Source: a virus (lineage: Duplodnaviria; Heunggongvirae; Uroviricota; Caudoviricetes). From it: DNA of 7,210 nt. How positions within the stretch are numbered: position 1 is the first letter of the stretch; the number at the start of each line of letters is the position of its first letter. The position numbers and the translations under genes are program-made. Where the stretch lies: IMG/VR virus record IMGVR_UViG_2548877009_000013, positions 1 through 7,210 of that record, one strand, 5' to 3'. Shown one piece after another: positions 763 to 6,895 of this stretch. The notes under the pieces are model-generated. The model saw only the letters and a list, made by a program, of their open reading frames with translations, ran no database searches and had not been told where the DNA came from.

Positions 763-2903
763 AACTGGCACCGAACGTAAAACAGCAGTCACGCGGCATA
801 AAACACAAAGAAACAGAAGTCATTATTTTTGCGGGTAGTGATGCCTGGTCACACGCAAAACAATGGCAGGAACATGACGCGCGTATGGCCGGAGATAATG
901 AGCCTCCTGTGTGGCTTGGGGAGCAGCAGTTATCCGAACTGGATAAGCTGCAAATTGTGCCGGAAGGCAGAAAATCAGTACGCATATTCAGGGCCGGACA
1001 TCTTGAGCCAGTAATGATCAAGGCGATTGGTCAGAAACTGGCGGCGGCAGGCGTACAGGATGCAAATTTTTACCCTGAGGGAATGCACGTTCAGAAGGTG
1101 GAGAACTGGCGCGAATATCTGGCCCGTGAGCGGCAGAATCTTTCTGATGGTCTGGTTATTGAGCTTCCGGTAAAGAAAAAAGATACCGGAAGTCATAGCG
1201 ATGACGAATTAAAGCCACGCGTTGAAAGTCGCGCCGATGGTGTTTTCTGGGTAACGCCCAAAGTGGATAAGCAGTCAGGCGAAATTATCCGGCCTGAGAC
1301 GTGGTTATGTTCTCCGCTTGAACTACTGGGAACGGGGACGATCGGTAAAGAGCATTACCGCGTGATGCGCTGGAAAAAAACCGCAAACCATGAAGTCATC
1401 ACAATGGCGATCCCGTGTGGTGGTATCGGCGACCGTGACGGCTGGCGGTTACTTAAAGATCACGGGCTGAACGTGACAACCAACGGCAAATACAGGGCAA
1501 TCCTGGCGGACTGGATGCAGTTAAGCGGAAGCCATGAGGAATGGCAGTTAAGCACAACAACGGGCTGGCATTTTGGCGCGTACATCATGCCGGACGGTTC
1601 GATCATTGGTGATTCTGAAAAACCGATCCTGTTTACCGGAAAAAGCGCCGCGATTAACGGTTATTCCGTGGCGGGTACGGCGGAGGGCTGGCGCGAGAGT
1701 GTGGCGCGACTGGCTGGCGGTAATGCCTCAATGATGCTGGGTGTGGCAACGTCACTGGCAGCGCCTTTAATTGGCCTTGTGGGTGCTGACGGCTTCGGGG
1801 TGCATCTTTTCGAACAGTCATCGGCAGGTAAGACCACCACGCAGAACATCGCATCAAGTTTATGGGGAGAGCCGGACGCGCAGCGGCTGACCTGGTACGG
1901 CACGGCGTTAGGTATTGCCAATGAGGCCGAGGCCCATAATGACGGGCTTTTACCACTGGATGAGATAGGCCAGGCCGGAAATGCGCGGGAAGTGTCAACG
2001 TCTGCTTATACGCTGTTTAACGGTTCAGGGAAATTACAGGGGGCGAAGGATGGCGGCAACAGGGAGATCAAACACTGGCGAACGGTGGCAATCAGCACCG
2101 GAGAAATGGACGTTGAGACGTTCCTCAAAACGGAGGGGATAAAGGTTAAGGCAGGACAGCTTGTCCGTCTGCTTAACGTGCCGATGGAAAAAGCCACGCA
2201 GTTTCACGAATACAGCACCGGAAAGGCGCACGCAGACGCGTTAAAAGATGCCTGGACAGAAAATCACGGGGCGGCGGGGCGTGAGTGGGTTAAATGGCTG
2301 GCAGACCACCAGCAGGAGACAAAGGACACGGTAAGGGCATGCCGTGAACGGTGGCGCAACCTGATACCGGAGAGCTACGGCGAGCAGGTCCACCGCGTGG
2401 GTGAGCGTTTCGCCATACTGGAGGCCGCACTTGTGCTTTCCGGTCATGTGACTGGCTGGGATGAGCAGGAATGCCGTGATGCCATTCAGCATAATTTTAA
2501 TGCCTGGGTGAAAGAGTTCGGTACGGGCAACAGGGAACACAGGCAGATTATTGAACAGGCTGAGGCGTTTCTTGCAGCCTATGGCCTGAGCAGGTTCGCC
2601 CCTGTCAATTATGACCCTGCCAGCCTGCCGATTTCAGAACTGTACGGCTACAGGGAAAGCGACGGGCGTTATGACGAGCCTGTTTTGTTTTACGTGCTGC
2701 CGGAGCCGTTTAGCTCACATGTGGCGAAGGGATTTAACAAGGATGCCGTAGCAAAGACCCTTCATGAAGCCGGAATGCTGAGAAAACCAGCCAGCGGGCG
2801 GGGATGGCAAATCAGGACACCACGACTAAAACACCTGAAAGGGGCGCGGCTAAGAGTGTATGGCCTTTTGCTGACGCAGGACCACGATGCTGAAAATGAT
2901 TAA
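759..2903 (+). CDS. Replication protein, primase/helicase-like P-loop NTPase (714 aa)
   Basis: Long ORF with a Walker A-like motif (SSAGKTTT) and a Walker B-like hydrophobic stretch ending in DE (LLPLDEIG) about 70 aa downstream; immediately followed by an iteron array, as in satellite primase-ori arrangements such as P4 alpha/ori. Exact family not determinable without a profile search. Confidence 0.7.
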   Translation: MKLAPNVKQQSRGIKHKETEVIIFAGSDAWSHAKQWQEHDARMAGDNEPPVWLGEQQLSELDKLQIVPEGRKSVRIFRAGHLEPVMIKAIGQKLAAAGVQDANFYPEGMHVQKVENWREYLARERQNLSDGLVIELPVKKKDTGSHSDDELKPRVESRADGVFWVTPKVDKQSGEIIRPETWLCSPLELLGTGTIGKEHYRVMRWKKTANHEVITMAIPCGGIGDRDGWRLLKDHGLNVTTNGKYRAILADWMQLSGSHEEWQLSTTTGWHFGAYIMPDGSIIGDSEKPILFTGKSAAINGYSVAGTAEGWRESVARLAGGNASMMLGVATSLAAPLIGLVGADGFGVHLFEQSSAGKTTTQNIASSLWGEPDAQRLTWYGTALGIANEAEAHNDGLLPLDEIGQAGNAREVSTSAYTLFNGSGKLQGAKDGGNREIKHWRTVAISTGEMDVETFLKTEGIKVKAGQLVRLLNVPMEKATQFHEYSTGKAHADALKDAWTENHGAAGREWVKWLADHQQETKDTVRACRERWRNLIPESYGEQVHRVGERFAILEAALVLSGHVTGWDEQECRDAIQHNFNAWVKEFGTGNREHRQIIEQAEAFLAAYGLSRFAPVNYDPASLPISELYGYRESDGRYDEPVLFYVLPEPFSSHVAKGFNKDAVAKTLHEAGMLRKPASGRGWQIRTPRLKHLKGARLRVYGLLLTQDHDAEND

Positions 2904-2928
2904 TCTCGCGTGTAGGAGGTAAAAATAT

Positions 2929-3218
2929 GTTGTCCCAGTCGTCCCAGTAAGCAACAAGCAATCGTAACACATTGAATTACATAAATTTCACTTACAAAAA
3001 GTGGGACAACAGCGGGACAACATTCAGGCATTTTGGGACAACATAGCGGCATTTTGGGACGACACGACACGTATTTTTTACCGTGCTGGAGGGTGGGACA
3101 ACACAAAAACCCTCATGTCGTCCCAAAATCGCCTTATGTCGTCCCACTTTGTGGAGTATGTTTTTAATAAAATCAACAGGTTAACATTAAGTGGGACAAC
3201 CGGGACAACTGGGACGAC
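2929..3218. repeat. Iteron array, putative origin of replication
   Basis: Twelve copies of the 9-bp motif YGGGACRAC. Eight are on the + strand (3002-3010, 3013-3021, 3034-3042, 3055-3063, 3094-3102 and three contiguous copies at 3192-3218) and four are inverted (2929-2937, 2938-2946, 3117-3125, 3138-3146). They are interspersed with AT-rich stretches (3147-3190, 3219-3257) and sit directly downstream of the replication gene. Confidence 0.7.
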
Positions 3219-3257
3219 GTGTTTTGTATATATATACGAAAAATCGAGATCTGAACT

Positions 3258-3506
3258 ATGAAGTTAAACCGCAAACAACCACACTACCGCGCCATTGACC
3301 TTACAGAGCACTGGCTGAGAGTGGCGATAAAAATCATCGACCGCAACACGGTGGAAGGATACGCGAAAGCACATCCCGAACTGATAAGCGCATTCATGAC
3401 CACAGCGGCGGCAAACTTTGCCACGCTGACAGAACGGGAGATTGCCGAAGCGGAACAGGTAACAACCATCAACGTAAAAACCGGAGAGTCAGGCGATGAT
3501 ACATGA
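3258..3506 (+). CDS. Hypothetical small protein (82 aa)
   Basis: ORF starting just after the iteron region; its 3' end overlaps the next ORF by 11 nt (coupled pair); no recognisable motif. Confidence 0.5.
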   Translation: MKLNRKQPHYRAIDLTEHWLRVAIKIIDRNTVEGYAKAHPELISAFMTTAAANFATLTEREIAEAEQVTTINVKTGESGDDT

Positions 3507-3744
3507 CCGCATAGCGGAGGAACTCGAGGCGAAAGGATTTTACCGGAGGGCGGCGGCGCGATGGGGTGAAGTCATGCAGCTGGTGGAGACAGACAAGGAA
3601 CGGCATCAGGTTACGATGCGACGGCTGGAATGTTCCAGGAAGGCACAGAGGCCACCGGAGCCGCCAACGGAGAACTATGCAGACCTGAGAAATGCAGTAA
3701 ATCGCACTTACGCAGACATGGGGCTGAGCAAATTAGCAGAGTAG
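3496..3744 (+). CDS. PerC-like small transcriptional regulator (82 aa), tentative
   Basis: N-terminal segment IAEELEAKGFYRRAAARWGEVM resembles, from memory, the conserved signature of PerC-family activators; GGAGAG Shine-Dalgarno 7 nt upstream of ATG 3496; followed by terminators. Confidence 0.45.
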   Translation: MIHDRIAEELEAKGFYRRAAARWGEVMQLVETDKERHQVTMRRLECSRKAQRPPEPPTENYADLRNAVNRTYADMGLSKLAE

Positions 3745-3766
3745 GAATACCAGAACCACACCACAC

Positions 3767-3790
3767 AGCCGGAGCAATCCGGCTTTTTTG
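3767..3790 (+). terminator. Rho-independent terminator
   Basis: Stem AGCCGGA (3767-3773), loop GCAA, TCCGGCT (3778-3784) followed by a run of six T, about 25 nt after the stop at 3744. Confidence 0.7.
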
Positions 3791-3795
3791 CGCCC

Positions 3796-3837
3796 AAAAA
3801 AAGCCCGATAAGGTCAGAGGTGGCTTATCGGGCTTTT
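3796..3837. terminator. Second hairpin terminator, possibly bidirectional
   Basis: A-tract (3796-3802), stem GCCCGATAAG (3803-3812), 11-nt loop, CTTATCGGGC (3824-3833), then TTTT (3834-3837). Confidence 0.5.
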
Positions 3838-3914
3838 GCATATGAGGCTTTTTGGTGCACTGACACACATGATCGGGATAATCATTTCATAATTTGCAAT
3901 ACAACTCAATATCA

Positions 3915-3942
3915 TTGCACAAAATGCAATCATGATTATAAT
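3915..3942 (+). promoter_or_regulatory. Sigma70-type promoter candidate for the capsid operon
   Basis: -35 TTGCAC (3915-3920), 16-bp spacer, perfect -10 TATAAT (3937-3942); lies about 55 nt upstream of the first gene of the capsid operon. Confidence 0.5.
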
Positions 3943-3945
3943 CAT
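3932..3945. promoter_or_regulatory. Perfect 14-bp palindrome overlapping the -10 hexamer (candidate operator)
   Basis: ATGATTATAATCAT is its own reverse complement and covers the TATAAT. The nearby dyads TGCAAT-N13-ATTGCA (3894-3918) and TTGCA-N5-TGCAA (3915-3929) suggest a regulator-binding region. Confidence 0.4.
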
Positions 3946-3998
3946 AACTGGATGAACATACAGTTATGATTTTTTAAGTCAAAGAGGAATTTCTTACT

Positions 3999-4205
3999 AT
4001 GGCTGAAGAGAAAAAAGGCGGTGTTTCGGTGTACATAAGCCCCGACATCGTGAAGGCGCTCAAGGAACGCCACCAGCAGAACGTAAAAGCAGGCATTGCG
4101 GCAGGACTTGATCCGCTGGCGATGGTTGAGCCGTCAACAGGCTGGCAGGTACGCGCCTATTTACGCGCGGCGCTGGGTATGAATCAGGTTCACGGGGGTG
4201 AATAA
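3999..4205 (+). CDS. Hypothetical small protein (68 aa), first gene of the capsid operon
   Basis: AGAGGA upstream of ATG 3999; stop overlaps the capsid gene start (TAATG at 4203-4207). The N-terminus (VSVYISPDIVKALKERH) has a strand-helix pattern compatible with a ribbon-helix-helix fold, which is speculative. Confidence 0.5.
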   Translation: MAEEKKGGVSVYISPDIVKALKERHQQNVKAGIAAGLDPLAMVEPSTGWQVRAYLRAALGMNQVHGGE

Positions 4206-5260
4206 TGACAGTAAAAGCAATGGCACTTAACACTAACCAGCTTTTTGCGTACCTGAATCGCGGGGATATTGCGGAATTTAAATTCAGTCCGCTGTTTACC
4301 ACGCTGTTTTTCCCGAACGTGGCGACATTCAGCACCCAAAACATCATGCTGGATACCCTGGACATTGAAGAAGTCACCATGTCGGCGTTTTGTTCGCCTA
4401 TGGTTGGCAGCCAGGTACAGCGCGATAAAGGGTACGAAACCAGCACAATTAAACCTGGCTACATGAAGCCAAAGCACGAAATCGATCCAACGAAAACCAT
4501 CATGCGCATGGCTGGAGAAGATCCAGCACAGCTTAACGACCCTACCTACCGCCGTATGCGCCTGATTACTGGCAACATGCGCCGCCAGATAAACGCCATT
4601 AAAGCGCGCGTGGAATGGCTGGCGGTGAATGCGATAACGACCGGAAAAAACATCATTGAGGGCGAAGGCATAGAACGCTATGAAATAGACTGGAAGATCC
4701 CAAGTAAAAATATCGCCAGACAGGGACCGGGTAAAAAGTGGTCAGAGGCAGATAAGGAAACACACGATCCAATCTATGACATCGAGCTTTATGCTGATCA
4801 GGCTGGTTGCCCCGCAAACGTCATGATTATGGGCGTTGAGGTATGGCGCACGTTACGCAGCTTTAAAAAATTCCGTGAGCTGTACGATCTTTCCCGTGGT
4901 TCAGAATCCGCCGCAGAACTGGCCTGTAAAAACCTGGGCGAAGTGGTGAGCTTTAAAGGCTATCTGGGCGATATTGCCCTTATCGTCTATTCCGGCAAAT
5001 ACGCCGACAGCGACGGCACAGAAAAATATTTCCTTGAGCCTGATTTACTGGTCCTGGGCAACACCAACAACAAAGGGCTGGTGGCCTATGGTGCGATTAT
5101 GGATCAGGAAGCGGTAAGAACAGGCGCAACGCAAAACATGTACTACCCGAAAAACTGGATTGAGGACGGCGATCCGGCGATTGAGTACGTGCAGACGCAC
5201 AGCGCACCGCAGCCGGTTCCGGCAGATATTCGCAAATTTGTTACCGTCAAAATTGCTTAA
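4205..5260 (+). CDS. Major capsid protein, phage lambda gpE-like (351 aa)
   Basis: Several blocks match lambda gpE as recalled: EFKFSPLF vs KFKFDPLF, PGYMKPKHE vs PGYVKPKHE, EDPAQLNDPTYRRMR vs EDPQNLADPAYRRRR, LGDIALIVYSGKY vs YGDVAIVVYSGQY, YPKNW and GDPA and SAP near the C-terminus. G-rich RBS upstream of ATG 4205. Confidence 0.9.
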   Translation: MTVKAMALNTNQLFAYLNRGDIAEFKFSPLFTTLFFPNVATFSTQNIMLDTLDIEEVTMSAFCSPMVGSQVQRDKGYETSTIKPGYMKPKHEIDPTKTIMRMAGEDPAQLNDPTYRRMRLITGNMRRQINAIKARVEWLAVNAITTGKNIIEGEGIERYEIDWKIPSKNIARQGPGKKWSEADKETHDPIYDIELYADQAGCPANVMIMGVEVWRTLRSFKKFRELYDLSRGSESAAELACKNLGEVVSFKGYLGDIALIVYSGKYADSDGTEKYFLEPDLLVLGNTNNKGLVAYGAIMDQEAVRTGATQNMYYPKNWIEDGDPAIEYVQTHSAPQPVPADIRKFVTVKIA

Positions 5261-5271
5261 CGGGGGATTCT

Positions 5272-5607
5272 ATGGACACTCCATACATTGAGTTATTTGC
5301 AGGTAGTCAGCAGGTATCCACGACGCTGGTACATTTTGCCGCTGATGCTGGCGTTATTCAGGAATTTACCCCGCTGATGCTGGCGGGCAATGGCGAGTTT
5401 AAGCCGTGGGATGGTCAGGAATCTGGCAAGGCTGTTTATCTGACCTCGTACCCCGTGGACACGTCAAAGCAGAAATCAGCACAGTGTTACAAGACGGGGA
5501 TATTTAATATCGCCGCCGTAAACTGGCCTGAGAGCGCCGACACTGACGCGAAAAAATGCGCCGCCTTTGCGGGTTCTGGCGTATCCGTTCAGCCGCTGGC
5601 GCGATAA
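5272..5607 (+). CDS. Head decoration protein, phage lambda gpD-like (111 aa)
   Basis: Size and motifs match lambda gpD as recalled: TPLML followed by WDG, YKTGIF vs YKSGTF, WPE with acidic residues, AAFAGSGVS vs TAFAGTAIS. GGGGGA RBS upstream; adjacent to the capsid gene. Confidence 0.85.
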   Translation: MDTPYIELFAGSQQVSTTLVHFAADAGVIQEFTPLMLAGNGEFKPWDGQESGKAVYLTSYPVDTSKQKSAQCYKTGIFNIAAVNWPESADTDAKKCAAFAGSGVSVQPLAR

Positions 5608-5619
5608 GCAGGGGAAACG

Positions 5620-6033
5620 ATGGCAACGAATGAAAGCATCATGGCGCTACCGCTGGCGAGTAAATTTAAAGCAGAAGCGCGGGCAATGGCTGACAGAGGT
5701 TTATCAACCTACGAGGCCGTATATCAACTCAACAAACTGGAAGAGCAGGACAAGCCGCGCGCTGATGCGATTATGGCGCTTCATGAACATAACGACTATC
5801 AGCCGCTGTTACGTGCAATGGCAAACGTGCCATGTATTAGCGTCGATAATGCTCGTGAAATCCTGAACATGACCATAGACCAGGAGCGCCCAAAGGTTGC
5901 ACCAGAGCTTACCGCAGCCTTTGAAAACTTTATGGACATGCACAGCCCGCAAGCCGTATCAGCTGGCATGGCATACGATGGCAGAAACCAGGGCGATGAC
6001 GGCGACATCGATCGCATACTGAAAACCATCTGA
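5620..6033 (+). CDS. Hypothetical protein (137 aa), last gene of the capsid operon
   Basis: AGGGGAAA RBS before ATG 5620; same strand and operon as the capsid and decoration genes; followed by a terminator. Function unknown; a head or packaging accessory role is suggested by position only. Confidence 0.6.
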   Translation: MATNESIMALPLASKFKAEARAMADRGLSTYEAVYQLNKLEEQDKPRADAIMALHEHNDYQPLLRAMANVPCISVDNAREILNMTIDQERPKVAPELTAAFENFMDMHSPQAVSAGMAYDGRNQGDDGDIDRILKTI

Positions 6034-6039
6034 GACAAG

Positions 6040-6061
6040 GCCGGAGAAATCCGGCTTTTTT
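6040..6061 (+). terminator. Rho-independent terminator
   Basis: GCCGGA (6040-6045), loop GAAA, TCCGGC (6050-6055), then TTTTTT (6056-6061), 7 nt after the stop at 6033. Nearly identical to the terminator at 3767-3790. Confidence 0.7.
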
Positions 6062-6062
6062 A

Positions 6063-6127
6063 CGGGTCCTTCCTGGAATTATGGCCCGTTACGGGGCGGC
6101 GACCTCGCGCGTTTTCGCTATTTATGA
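6063..6127 (+). other. Lambda-type cohesive end site (cos), left copy in + orientation
   Basis: Contains GTTACG then GGGCGGCGACCT (6094-6105) then CGCGCGTTTTCGCTATTTATGA. This matches the 12-nt cohesive end and flanks of the lambda cosN region as recalled (lambda: GTTACG, GGGCGGCGACCT, CGCGGGTTTTCGCTATTTATGA). It sits directly upstream of a Nu1-like gene, as in lambda. Confidence 0.75.
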
Positions 6128-6194
6128 CGTTTTTCCGTGAAGGTGACACCACCACCACTTGATTAACATTTAACCAGTCAATTGAGGTAATATT

Positions 6195-6635
6195 ATGATT
6201 GATAAGGATTGTTTTGTAAGTCAGCAGGAAATAGCTCAACATTTCAAGGTAAACAGAACCACTATTCGCGCATGGACCAAACAGGGGATGCCCTATCTTA
6301 ATGCGGATCGCGGAAAGTCTGGAGGTTATCACATCGGGCATACATTGCTTTGGTCTTCAGGTAAAAGCCATCTTGAGACCATCGGATATCACGTAGAAAC
6401 CAGTGCGCTGGAAAAAATTATGGTTGCCAGGCTGCTTTTATCTGAGCGTGACGAGTACTCCAGTGAAGAAACAGAACATCGCTTTGATGAAGGTTTGCAG
6501 ATTTACGGCTATTCACCGGAAGATGTGAGCAAGGCACGAAATAAAATGGCTGGCTTTCTGGCTGGGTGGCGTCATGCCGTAAGCGTTCGCCGTACCAGCA
6601 TGGAGCAATCAGTCGTTACAGAACAGCAAAGTTAA
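6195..6635 (+). CDS. Terminase small subunit-like protein with a Nu1-type winged-HTH N-terminus (146 aa)
   Basis: N-terminus VSQQEIAQHFKVNRTTIRAWTKQGMPYL parallels lambda Nu1 VNKKQLADIFGASIRTIQNWQEQGMPVL as recalled; GAGG RBS 8 nt upstream of ATG 6195; located immediately after cos. The C-terminal two thirds show no recognisable similarity to Nu1. Confidence 0.75.
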   Translation: MIDKDCFVSQQEIAQHFKVNRTTIRAWTKQGMPYLNADRGKSGGYHIGHTLLWSSGKSHLETIGYHVETSALEKIMVARLLLSERDEYSSEETEHRFDEGLQIYGYSPEDVSKARNKMAGFLAGWRHAVSVRRTSMEQSVVTEQQS

Positions 6636-6665: not shown

Positions 6666-6815
6666 CAATACAACAACCACGTATTTTTTTAAAACTATTT
6701 GATTCAATTAGCATTTTTTTATTTTCAGCATCAAAAAAACACTATCAGGTTGTTGTATTGCTCTCTATTTTTACTTAGTTATCAAATAGATATGACAAAC
6801 AATTAAACAACAACC
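6666..6815. repeat. AT-rich segment with three copies of ACAACAACC (two direct, one inverted), candidate cosB-like binding sites
   Basis: ACAACAACC at 6670-6678 and 6807-6815; inverted GGTTGTTGT at 6748-6756. The outer and middle copies form a 13-bp perfect inverted repeat (CAATACAACAACC at 6666-6678 vs GGTTGTTGTATTG at 6748-6760). No ORF of note in this segment. Confidence 0.4.
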
Positions 6816-6830
6816 TACCTCTAAAAAAGC

Positions 6831-6895
6831 TCATAAATAGCGAAAAACCGCGAGGTCGCCGCCCCGTAACGGGCCATAATTCCAGGAAGGACCCG
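6831..6895 (-). other. Second lambda-type cos site, inverted copy
   Basis: Reverse complement of 6831-6895 equals 6063-6127 except for 2 mismatches (63 of 65 identical); contains the complement of GGGCGGCGACCT at 6853-6864. Confidence 0.7.

Follow-up and report, generated by a model that had tools for sequence, protein, structure and literature searches.

The gene at positions 6195-6635 of the 7,210-nucleotide stretch of viral DNA analysed here (the window) very probably encodes an RppA-type 'redirecting phage packaging' protein (Rpp) of a phage-inducible chromosomal island (PICI) of the EcCICFT073 family. We document its homology, its domain limits, its conserved DNA-reading residues, the geometry of the cos1-rpp pair, the island context and the absence of a terminase gene from the window. 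The window Rpp is another allele of a published and structurally solved family and not a new fusion; earlier work on EcCICFT073 already covers the protein and how it acts, the location of its gene beside cos1, the pair of cos sites and the genes for the capsid and decoration proteins, and the finding is therefore already known. The coordinates of the features are collected in Table 1.

Table 1. Features of the window Rpp and of the two cos sites; bp are counted from the cohesive end of the respective cos.
Feature	Position	Strand	Basis or remark
Winged-HTH (wHTH) DNA-binding domain	about residues 8-56 of the window Rpp
Helical dimerisation/TerS-binding part	about residues 57-145 of the window Rpp
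GC hairpin GCCGGA-GAAA-TCCGGC with T-run, terminator-like, after the 137-aa ORF and directly before cosQ	6040..6061	+	read from sequence
cosQ core GGGTCCT of cos1, at the lambda position of -30 to -24 relative to the cohesive end	6064..6070	+	alignment with EcCICFT073 and lambda
cosN of cos1, 12-nt cohesive end GGGCGGCGACCT, identical to lambda	6094..6105	+
cosB core of cos1, bp 48-65, AGGTGACACCACCACCAC	6141..6158	+	matches EcCICFT073 cos1
rpp gene (RppA-type, 146 aa)	6195..6635	+	93% identity to RppA; E 7e-32 to RppC 6HLK; ATG at bp 102
cosB of cos2, A/T-rich spacers with TTGATAA	6650..6852	-	aligned base by base with lambdoid phage cos
R1 of cos2, GGTTGTTGT, bp 187-195	6670..6678	-
R2 of cos2, inverted GGTTGTTGT, bp 109-117	6748..6756	-
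R3 of cos2, GGTTGTTGT, bp 50-58	6807..6815	-
cosN of cos2, cohesive end GGGCGGCGACCT	6853..6864	-
cosQ core of cos2, GGGTCCT	6888..6894	-

Sequence relatives of the 6195-6635 protein

The open reading frame starts with ATG, has a GAGG 8 nt upstream and shares 134 of 144 residues with RppA (c1503) of EcCICFT073, an island located in the E. coli CFT073 chromosome (extract positions 1-9000). Fig. S1 of PMC6739421 served to verify the RppA sequence, and the supplement (Fillol-Salom et al. 2019) gives c1503 as RppA. A phmmer search of the PDB sequences matched RppC (6HLK/6HN7) over residues 1-125, and the RppB type (cluster P0003, starting MNNKDCF) is 84% identical to the window protein. The protein is conserved as such: homologues from 17 clusters show 52-93% identity, and 53 columns distributed over the full length are invariant. 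When 1.84 billion representative proteins were searched exhaustively with phmmer, only 32 matches came back and none gave a link to full-length TerS families; the near-full-length matches are short proteins of ~120-155 aa and the few longer ones match over short stretches only, a profile that indicates a small and distinct family.

Ten substitutions separate the window Rpp from RppA, all of them outside the recognition helix, and the six-residue tail is different, with ...SVVTEQQS in the window and ...SADTEQ in RppA. The dN/dS of the window rpp versus rppA is 0.53, moderately below 1 and derived from just 15 differences. Based on the 93% identity, the identical recognition helix and the identical cos1 core, we expect with high confidence that this allele works like RppA and RppC. 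An allele that still sequesters TerS but, by its ten substitutions or its altered tail, no longer promotes packaging of its own island is conceivable, since the published R21A/T22A mutant of RppA separates interference from packaging (PMC6739421) and the two activities are thus separable in principle. We consider such an interference-only allele very unlikely, as the recognition helix and the wing are the same as in RppA, the cosB core of cos1 is the same as that of the functional EcCICFT073 cos1 and the 146-aa tail variant recurs in many islands.

Structure and DNA-reading residues

Residues Arg21, Thr22, Thr23, Arg25, Trp27, Lys29 and Lys41, which have been proposed to read DNA in RppC, are all present in the window Rpp and are invariant across an alignment of 16 homologues that spans Escherichia, Salmonella, Klebsiella and Phytobacter. 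Position 30 is Gln, as in RppA, and position 39 is Arg. In comparison with RppC (6HLK; 6HN7 is the complex with residues 1-98 of lambda TerS), Arg21, Thr22, Arg25, Lys29 and Lys41 are conserved, whereas overall identity is about 40-50%, position 30 is Arg in RppC and Gln in the window, and the dimerisation residues of α6 are poorly conserved; mixed dimers of RppA and RppC do not form, according to the Rpp structure paper.

An AlphaFold model was built from the 16-sequence alignment (mean pLDDT 57, pTM 0.48) and was used for the order of the structural elements and for the top Foldseek matches, not for interfaces. Helices are predicted at residues 10-17, 21-29, 51-62, 71-85, 91-103 and 108-145 together with a hairpin at 36-46, and the predicted order of α1, α2, β-hairpin and α3-α6 matches that of RppC. 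The length of 146 aa lies within the Rpp range of about 135-154 aa, and the modelled arrangement is that of a wHTH followed by helices α4-α6. The only significant Foldseek matches in the PDB were 6HLK and 6HN7_A. Structure prediction, which the original prediction had named as a check, thus pointed to the two RppC entries, but the model itself was poor, and its low confidence means that the structural agreement rests mainly on sequence.

After RppC, the next Foldseek matches were MerR regulators, at a non-significant E of about 1, and Pfam gave sub-threshold matches to HTH_17, MerR_1 and HTH_28, as would be expected if the protein were an ordinary wHTH transcription factor or recombination-directionality factor of the MerR/excisionase type and unrelated to packaging. 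All of these HTH-family matches, however, fall below their curated cut-offs (15.8 bits versus 21.6 for PF13411), and the match that covers the full length is to RppA and RppC, for which a packaging role has been shown genetically and structurally (PMC6739421). Moreover, rpp is tied to cos at a fixed distance, with its ATG at bp 102, counted from the cohesive end, in every one of the 22 loci compared, and we regard a MerR/excisionase-type factor as highly improbable.

Extent of the resemblance to Nu1

The resemblance to the small terminase subunit of lambda is confined to the N-terminal domain. BLASTP against lambda gpNu1 gave one alignment only, over residues 8-56 (33% identity, pairwise E 8e-6), and the Nu1 DNA-binding-domain structures 1J9I and 7LW0 were weak phmmer matches in the PDB (E 0.2-0.5, residues 8-53). 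The 199-position profile PHROG_57 'terminase small subunit' matched residues 4-46 only (E 6e-8), whereas Pfam Phage_Nu1 (PF07471) remained below threshold, with 13.3 bits over residues 8-37 only and a cut-off of 30. In hhalign, 16 Rpp homologues and seven lambda-like TerS proteins aligned over columns 5-51 and no further. Given where the BLASTP, PHROG, Pfam and hhalign matches end, the C-terminal ~90 residues have no detectable TerS counterpart, and the C-terminal region of Nu1 responsible for self-assembly and TerL binding is absent from the window Rpp by hhalign and BLASTP.

These limits agree with the original prediction, made from the sequence alone, that only the N-terminal winged-HTH is Nu1-like (~residues 5-56) and that the remainder lacks the Nu1 C-terminal region (~90 residues matching no TerS). 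The profile comparison that it proposed against Nu1/TerS families yielded no full-length alignment. Its suggestion that the protein redirects or blocks helper packaging in the manner of Rpp proteins gains support from the close similarity to RppA and RppC. What it missed is that a close orthologue has already been published and characterised structurally.

The fallback in the original prediction was a divergent genuine TerS. Such a protein would attach to the island cos and itself bring in the helper TerL, like the SaPI TerS does for pac islands. The wHTH is indeed Nu1-like, the gene lies directly 3' of cos, which is the place of Nu1 in lambda, and a real terS occupies the rpp slot in some sister islands. 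However, similarity to TerS ends at residue ~56 by all four methods and the window Rpp is ~35 residues shorter than lambda-like TerS. The TerS of a sister island in E. coli 94-3024, in contrast, has 180 aa, shows 35% identity to lambda Nu1 along its entire length and covers positions 8-192 of PHROG_57 (E 5e-51), yet it gave no alignment with the window Rpp. A search for terL and terS within the window found no terminase gene, and no terL directly downstream of rpp, where the A/T-rich cosB, the inverted cos2 and a 93-aa ORF follow; in phages that share the cos type of cos2, terS and then a gpA homologue are found. Transfer of EcCICFT073 also depends on the helper TerS (PMC6092414), and a genuine island TerS is in our view extremely unlikely.

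The cos1 site and its spacing from rpp

The cohesive-end sequence GGGCGGCGACCT is present in two copies in the window, where 0.04 would be expected by chance. The copy upstream of rpp belongs to cos1, which is identical between the window and EcCICFT073 over bp 18-73. This stretch includes bp 48-65, a position that Murialdo and Feiss proposed as a putative Rpp-binding 'R3-PICI' (PMC9026076); the cosB of the EcCICFT073 cos1 confers RppA-dependent transfer (PMC6739421). The bp 102 spacing of the rpp start is the published geometry of cos-rpp modules (PMC9026076). The terminator-like hairpin that precedes cosQ is also found in EcCICFT073; it was not listed by a consensus scan for promoters and terminators around rpp, which performed no better than on shuffled sequence.

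The inverted second site, cos2, as a copy of a phage cos

Downstream of rpp, cos2 reproduces almost the whole cos of a distinct lambdoid phage lineage, with cosQ, cosN and a full cosB that comprises R3, an IHF-like spacer, R2 and R1. The repeat GGTTGTTGT occurs exactly three times in the window (0.09 expected) and its copies are laid out as R3, R2 and R1 of lambda. At least 66 IMG/VR contigs carry cosN followed by GGTTGTTGT at the R3 position, with terS (Nu1-like) and terL (gpA-like) after it, and they represent genuine lambdoid phages. We refer to phages with GGTTGTTGT repeats after cosN and a TerS of the MAFLLNKSDMASS... kind as type A. The alignment of the window cos2 with the type A phage cos spans roughly -30 to +215 and stops where the phage terS would start. 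In EcCICFT073, cos2 (extract 8100-8340) has three copies of CATGTCCGGTT. Over bp 1 to ~135 it is nearly identical to the cos of another phage group, type B, whose members have their own terS and terL. Among the matches listed, at least one genome (IMG 2585427729) harbours an island and a phage that are both of type A.

In a blastn search of the GenBank phage collection, cos2 matched in cosQ/cosN only (query positions 2-99), and the TerS proteins in that collection closest to those of the type A phages were from N15, Enterobacter phage MStein-2023a and PhiR12, at ~53-57% identity. By these two comparisons no isolated, named type A phage was found, and both phage types are known here as IMG/VR contigs only. 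Two further ideas on the repeats were discarded. The resident prophage of CFT073 does not match the EcCICFT073 cos2, its R sites being (C/T)(A/G)TGTCGG with no second C, and the cos2 repeats do not qualify as Rpp sites, as identical Rpp DNA-binding domains accompany either type A or type B and both types precede their own terS in phages.

Among the 22 Rpp loci, the tail ...SVVTEQQS (146 aa) goes with a type A cos2 and ...SADTEQ (144 aa) with type B. This co-variation places a cassette junction inside the last ~6 codons of rpp (6620-6635 in the window), and such a junction explains the two tail variants. Sequence comparison indicates that islands which are near-identical in other respects exchange cos2 as a cassette, its type being A in the window, B in EcCICFT073 and lambda-like in the E. 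coli 94-3024 island.

The cosQ/cosN portions of cos1 and cos2 lie within a 72-nt inverted repeat (6063-6134 and 6824-6895) whose arms are identical at 68 of 72 positions, whereas in EcCICFT073 the cosQ-to-cosN spacer of cos1 is unlike that of cos2. This difference suggests gene conversion between the inverted sites. The 689-bp segment with rpp could in principle invert by recombination.

Since cos2 is a straight copy of a phage cos, the unmodified terminase of that lineage could package the island directly. We put at about even the chance that the module is 'bilingual', with cos1 read by Rpp-TerS and with cos2, as a mimic of the cos of a cognate phage, serving for Rpp-independent packaging in the opposite direction by the unmodified terminase of the cognate lineage. 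Two points count against such direct use of cos2: Rpp might also sequester the cognate TerS, and deletion of cos2 raised lambda-mediated transfer of EcCICFT073 (PMC6092414).

The source papers identified no phage cosB in the island and described the island cosB as 'completely divergent' from those of lambda and phi80; their comparisons were limited to these two phages and, in the 2018 paper, inducing phage 4. In their review, Murialdo and Feiss deal with cos1 only (PMC9026076). A full-text literature search found no other paper on a phage origin of the island cos2, and this side observation may be new.

Other variants of the packaging module

The island of E. coli 94-3024 is 97% identical to the window over 74% of its length. 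In its cos1-rpp slot (locus 6380-7320) it has a cos with GGTGGTGGTGGTT/CACCAACC repeats and a full-length Nu1-like terS, and its inverted cos has lambda-like R sites (TCCGTTCTTCTTC), a third type of cos2. By these comparisons the packaging module is interchangeable between an Rpp type and a TerS type. At least nine IMG/VR contigs have two convergent phage-like cos sites, one of type A and one of type B, ~480 bp apart, with only a 22-aa remnant of rpp between them; such contigs may represent islands that do without Rpp and depend on a pair of mimicked phage cos sites.

Island context

The gene order in the window is DUF4222, primase, PerC, a 68-aa ORF, a gpE-like capsid protein, a gpD-like decoration protein, a 137-aa ORF, cos1-rpp-cos2 and a 93-aa ORF, and it matches EcCICFT073 and an island of E. 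coli MEI4BO-21. Carriage by a PICI is borne out by the presence of the primase, PerC and capsid module and by the lack of a terminase gene. The window stops short of int, and the evidence for int and alpA comes from two syntenic islands, EcCICFT073 and that of E. coli MEI4BO-21, each of which is inserted between roxA and phoQ; in the MEI4BO-21 island, int and alpA are at the left end.

The capsid gene (4205-5260) encodes a full-length gpE-like major capsid protein with 43% identity to lambda E, and the decoration protein (5272-5607) is 37% identical to gpD. For the 137-aa protein (5620-6033), the sole annotated match is a head-maturation-protease PHROG, of which it resembles the C-terminal end (E 4e-10); this is a hint of a scaffold. 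A homologue of the lambda Nu3 scaffold was considered and dropped, BLASTP against Nu3 being not significant. Published deletions of the capsid and decoration genes left interference unrelieved, and EcCICFT073 was packaged in phage-sized heads.

The replication module is of a different make in the two islands, the window having a 714-aa DUF927-type primase (759-2903) and no SSB gene, and EcCICFT073 a 584-aa primase together with SSB (extract 2241-4948). Differing replication modules next to packaging and capsid modules that are ~95% identical point to modular exchange between islands. Just 3' of the primase gene, at 2990-3200, GGGACAACAT...GGCATTTT occurs twice at 21-nt spacing, and further short repeats are GTGGGACAAC, twice, and CCTNATGTCGTCCCA, twice in inverse sense. 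This is the location reported for PICI replication origins.

Proposed mechanism of packaging redirection

For the window allele, we infer TerS binding, phage interference and cos1-specific packaging from the published work on RppA and RppC. Rpp proteins bind the helper TerS, block recognition of the phage cos and turn packaging towards the island; lambda plaques return when c1503 is deleted, and RppA, which binds TerS, is required for transfer of the island (PMC6739421). Contact between Rpp and TerS is made through a surface that mimics the dimer interface of the TerS DNA-binding domain and through α6/α3 helix packing, the heterocomplex cannot use phage cosB and uses the cosB of cos1, and TerS stays essential, presumably for bringing TerL (PMC6739421, PMC6092414, PMC9026076).

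In the window island, the N-terminal winged-HTH of Rpp would likewise mimic the DNA-binding domain of a lambda-like TerS (gpNu1), and the helical C-terminal part would dimerise and pack against helix α3 of TerS. On induction of a lambda-like helper, Rpp would capture TerS in a heterocomplex that would no longer recognise the phage cosB, so that phage packaging would be blocked, and that would recognise the island cosB at cos1 (the core and its surroundings). The TerS half would recruit TerL, the cosN of cos1 would be cut and island concatemers would be packaged rightwards; since Rpp is without the TerL-docking region, helper TerS would be needed.

Comparison with known systems

The closest system is RppA of EcCICFT073, with which the window shares the flanking genes, an identical cosB core of cos1, the rpp start position and an inverted cos2 downstream, but whose cos2 repeats are CATGTCCGGTT and not GGTTGTTGT. 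With lambda gpNu1 (PF07471; 1J9I) the window Rpp has in common the winged-HTH fold, ~33% identity over ~49 residues and a gene directly 3' of cosN/cosB. It differs in being without the C-terminus for self-assembly and TerL binding, in having other DNA-reading residues and in that Rpp binds TerS and does not replace it (PMC9026076). Piracy by SaPIs through TerS and Ppi similarly diverts the helper terminase to the island and blocks phage packaging, although the proteins are unrelated and two SaPI proteins do the job of the single Rpp, as discussed in the source papers (PMC6739421). The strategy of SaPIbov5, which carries a helper cos, is resembled by cos2.

The main use of the finding is correct annotation, as such rpp genes are annotated in RefSeq as 'hypothetical protein'. 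If cos2 cassettes copy the cos of specific lineages, the helper range of an island would be readable from its sequence, with cos1 standing for Rpp-sensitive TerS types and cos2 for one cognate lineage. Mimicry by cos2, if true, would also explain why EcCICFT073 keeps a second cos that is dispensable or slightly harmful with lambda and phi80 as helpers.
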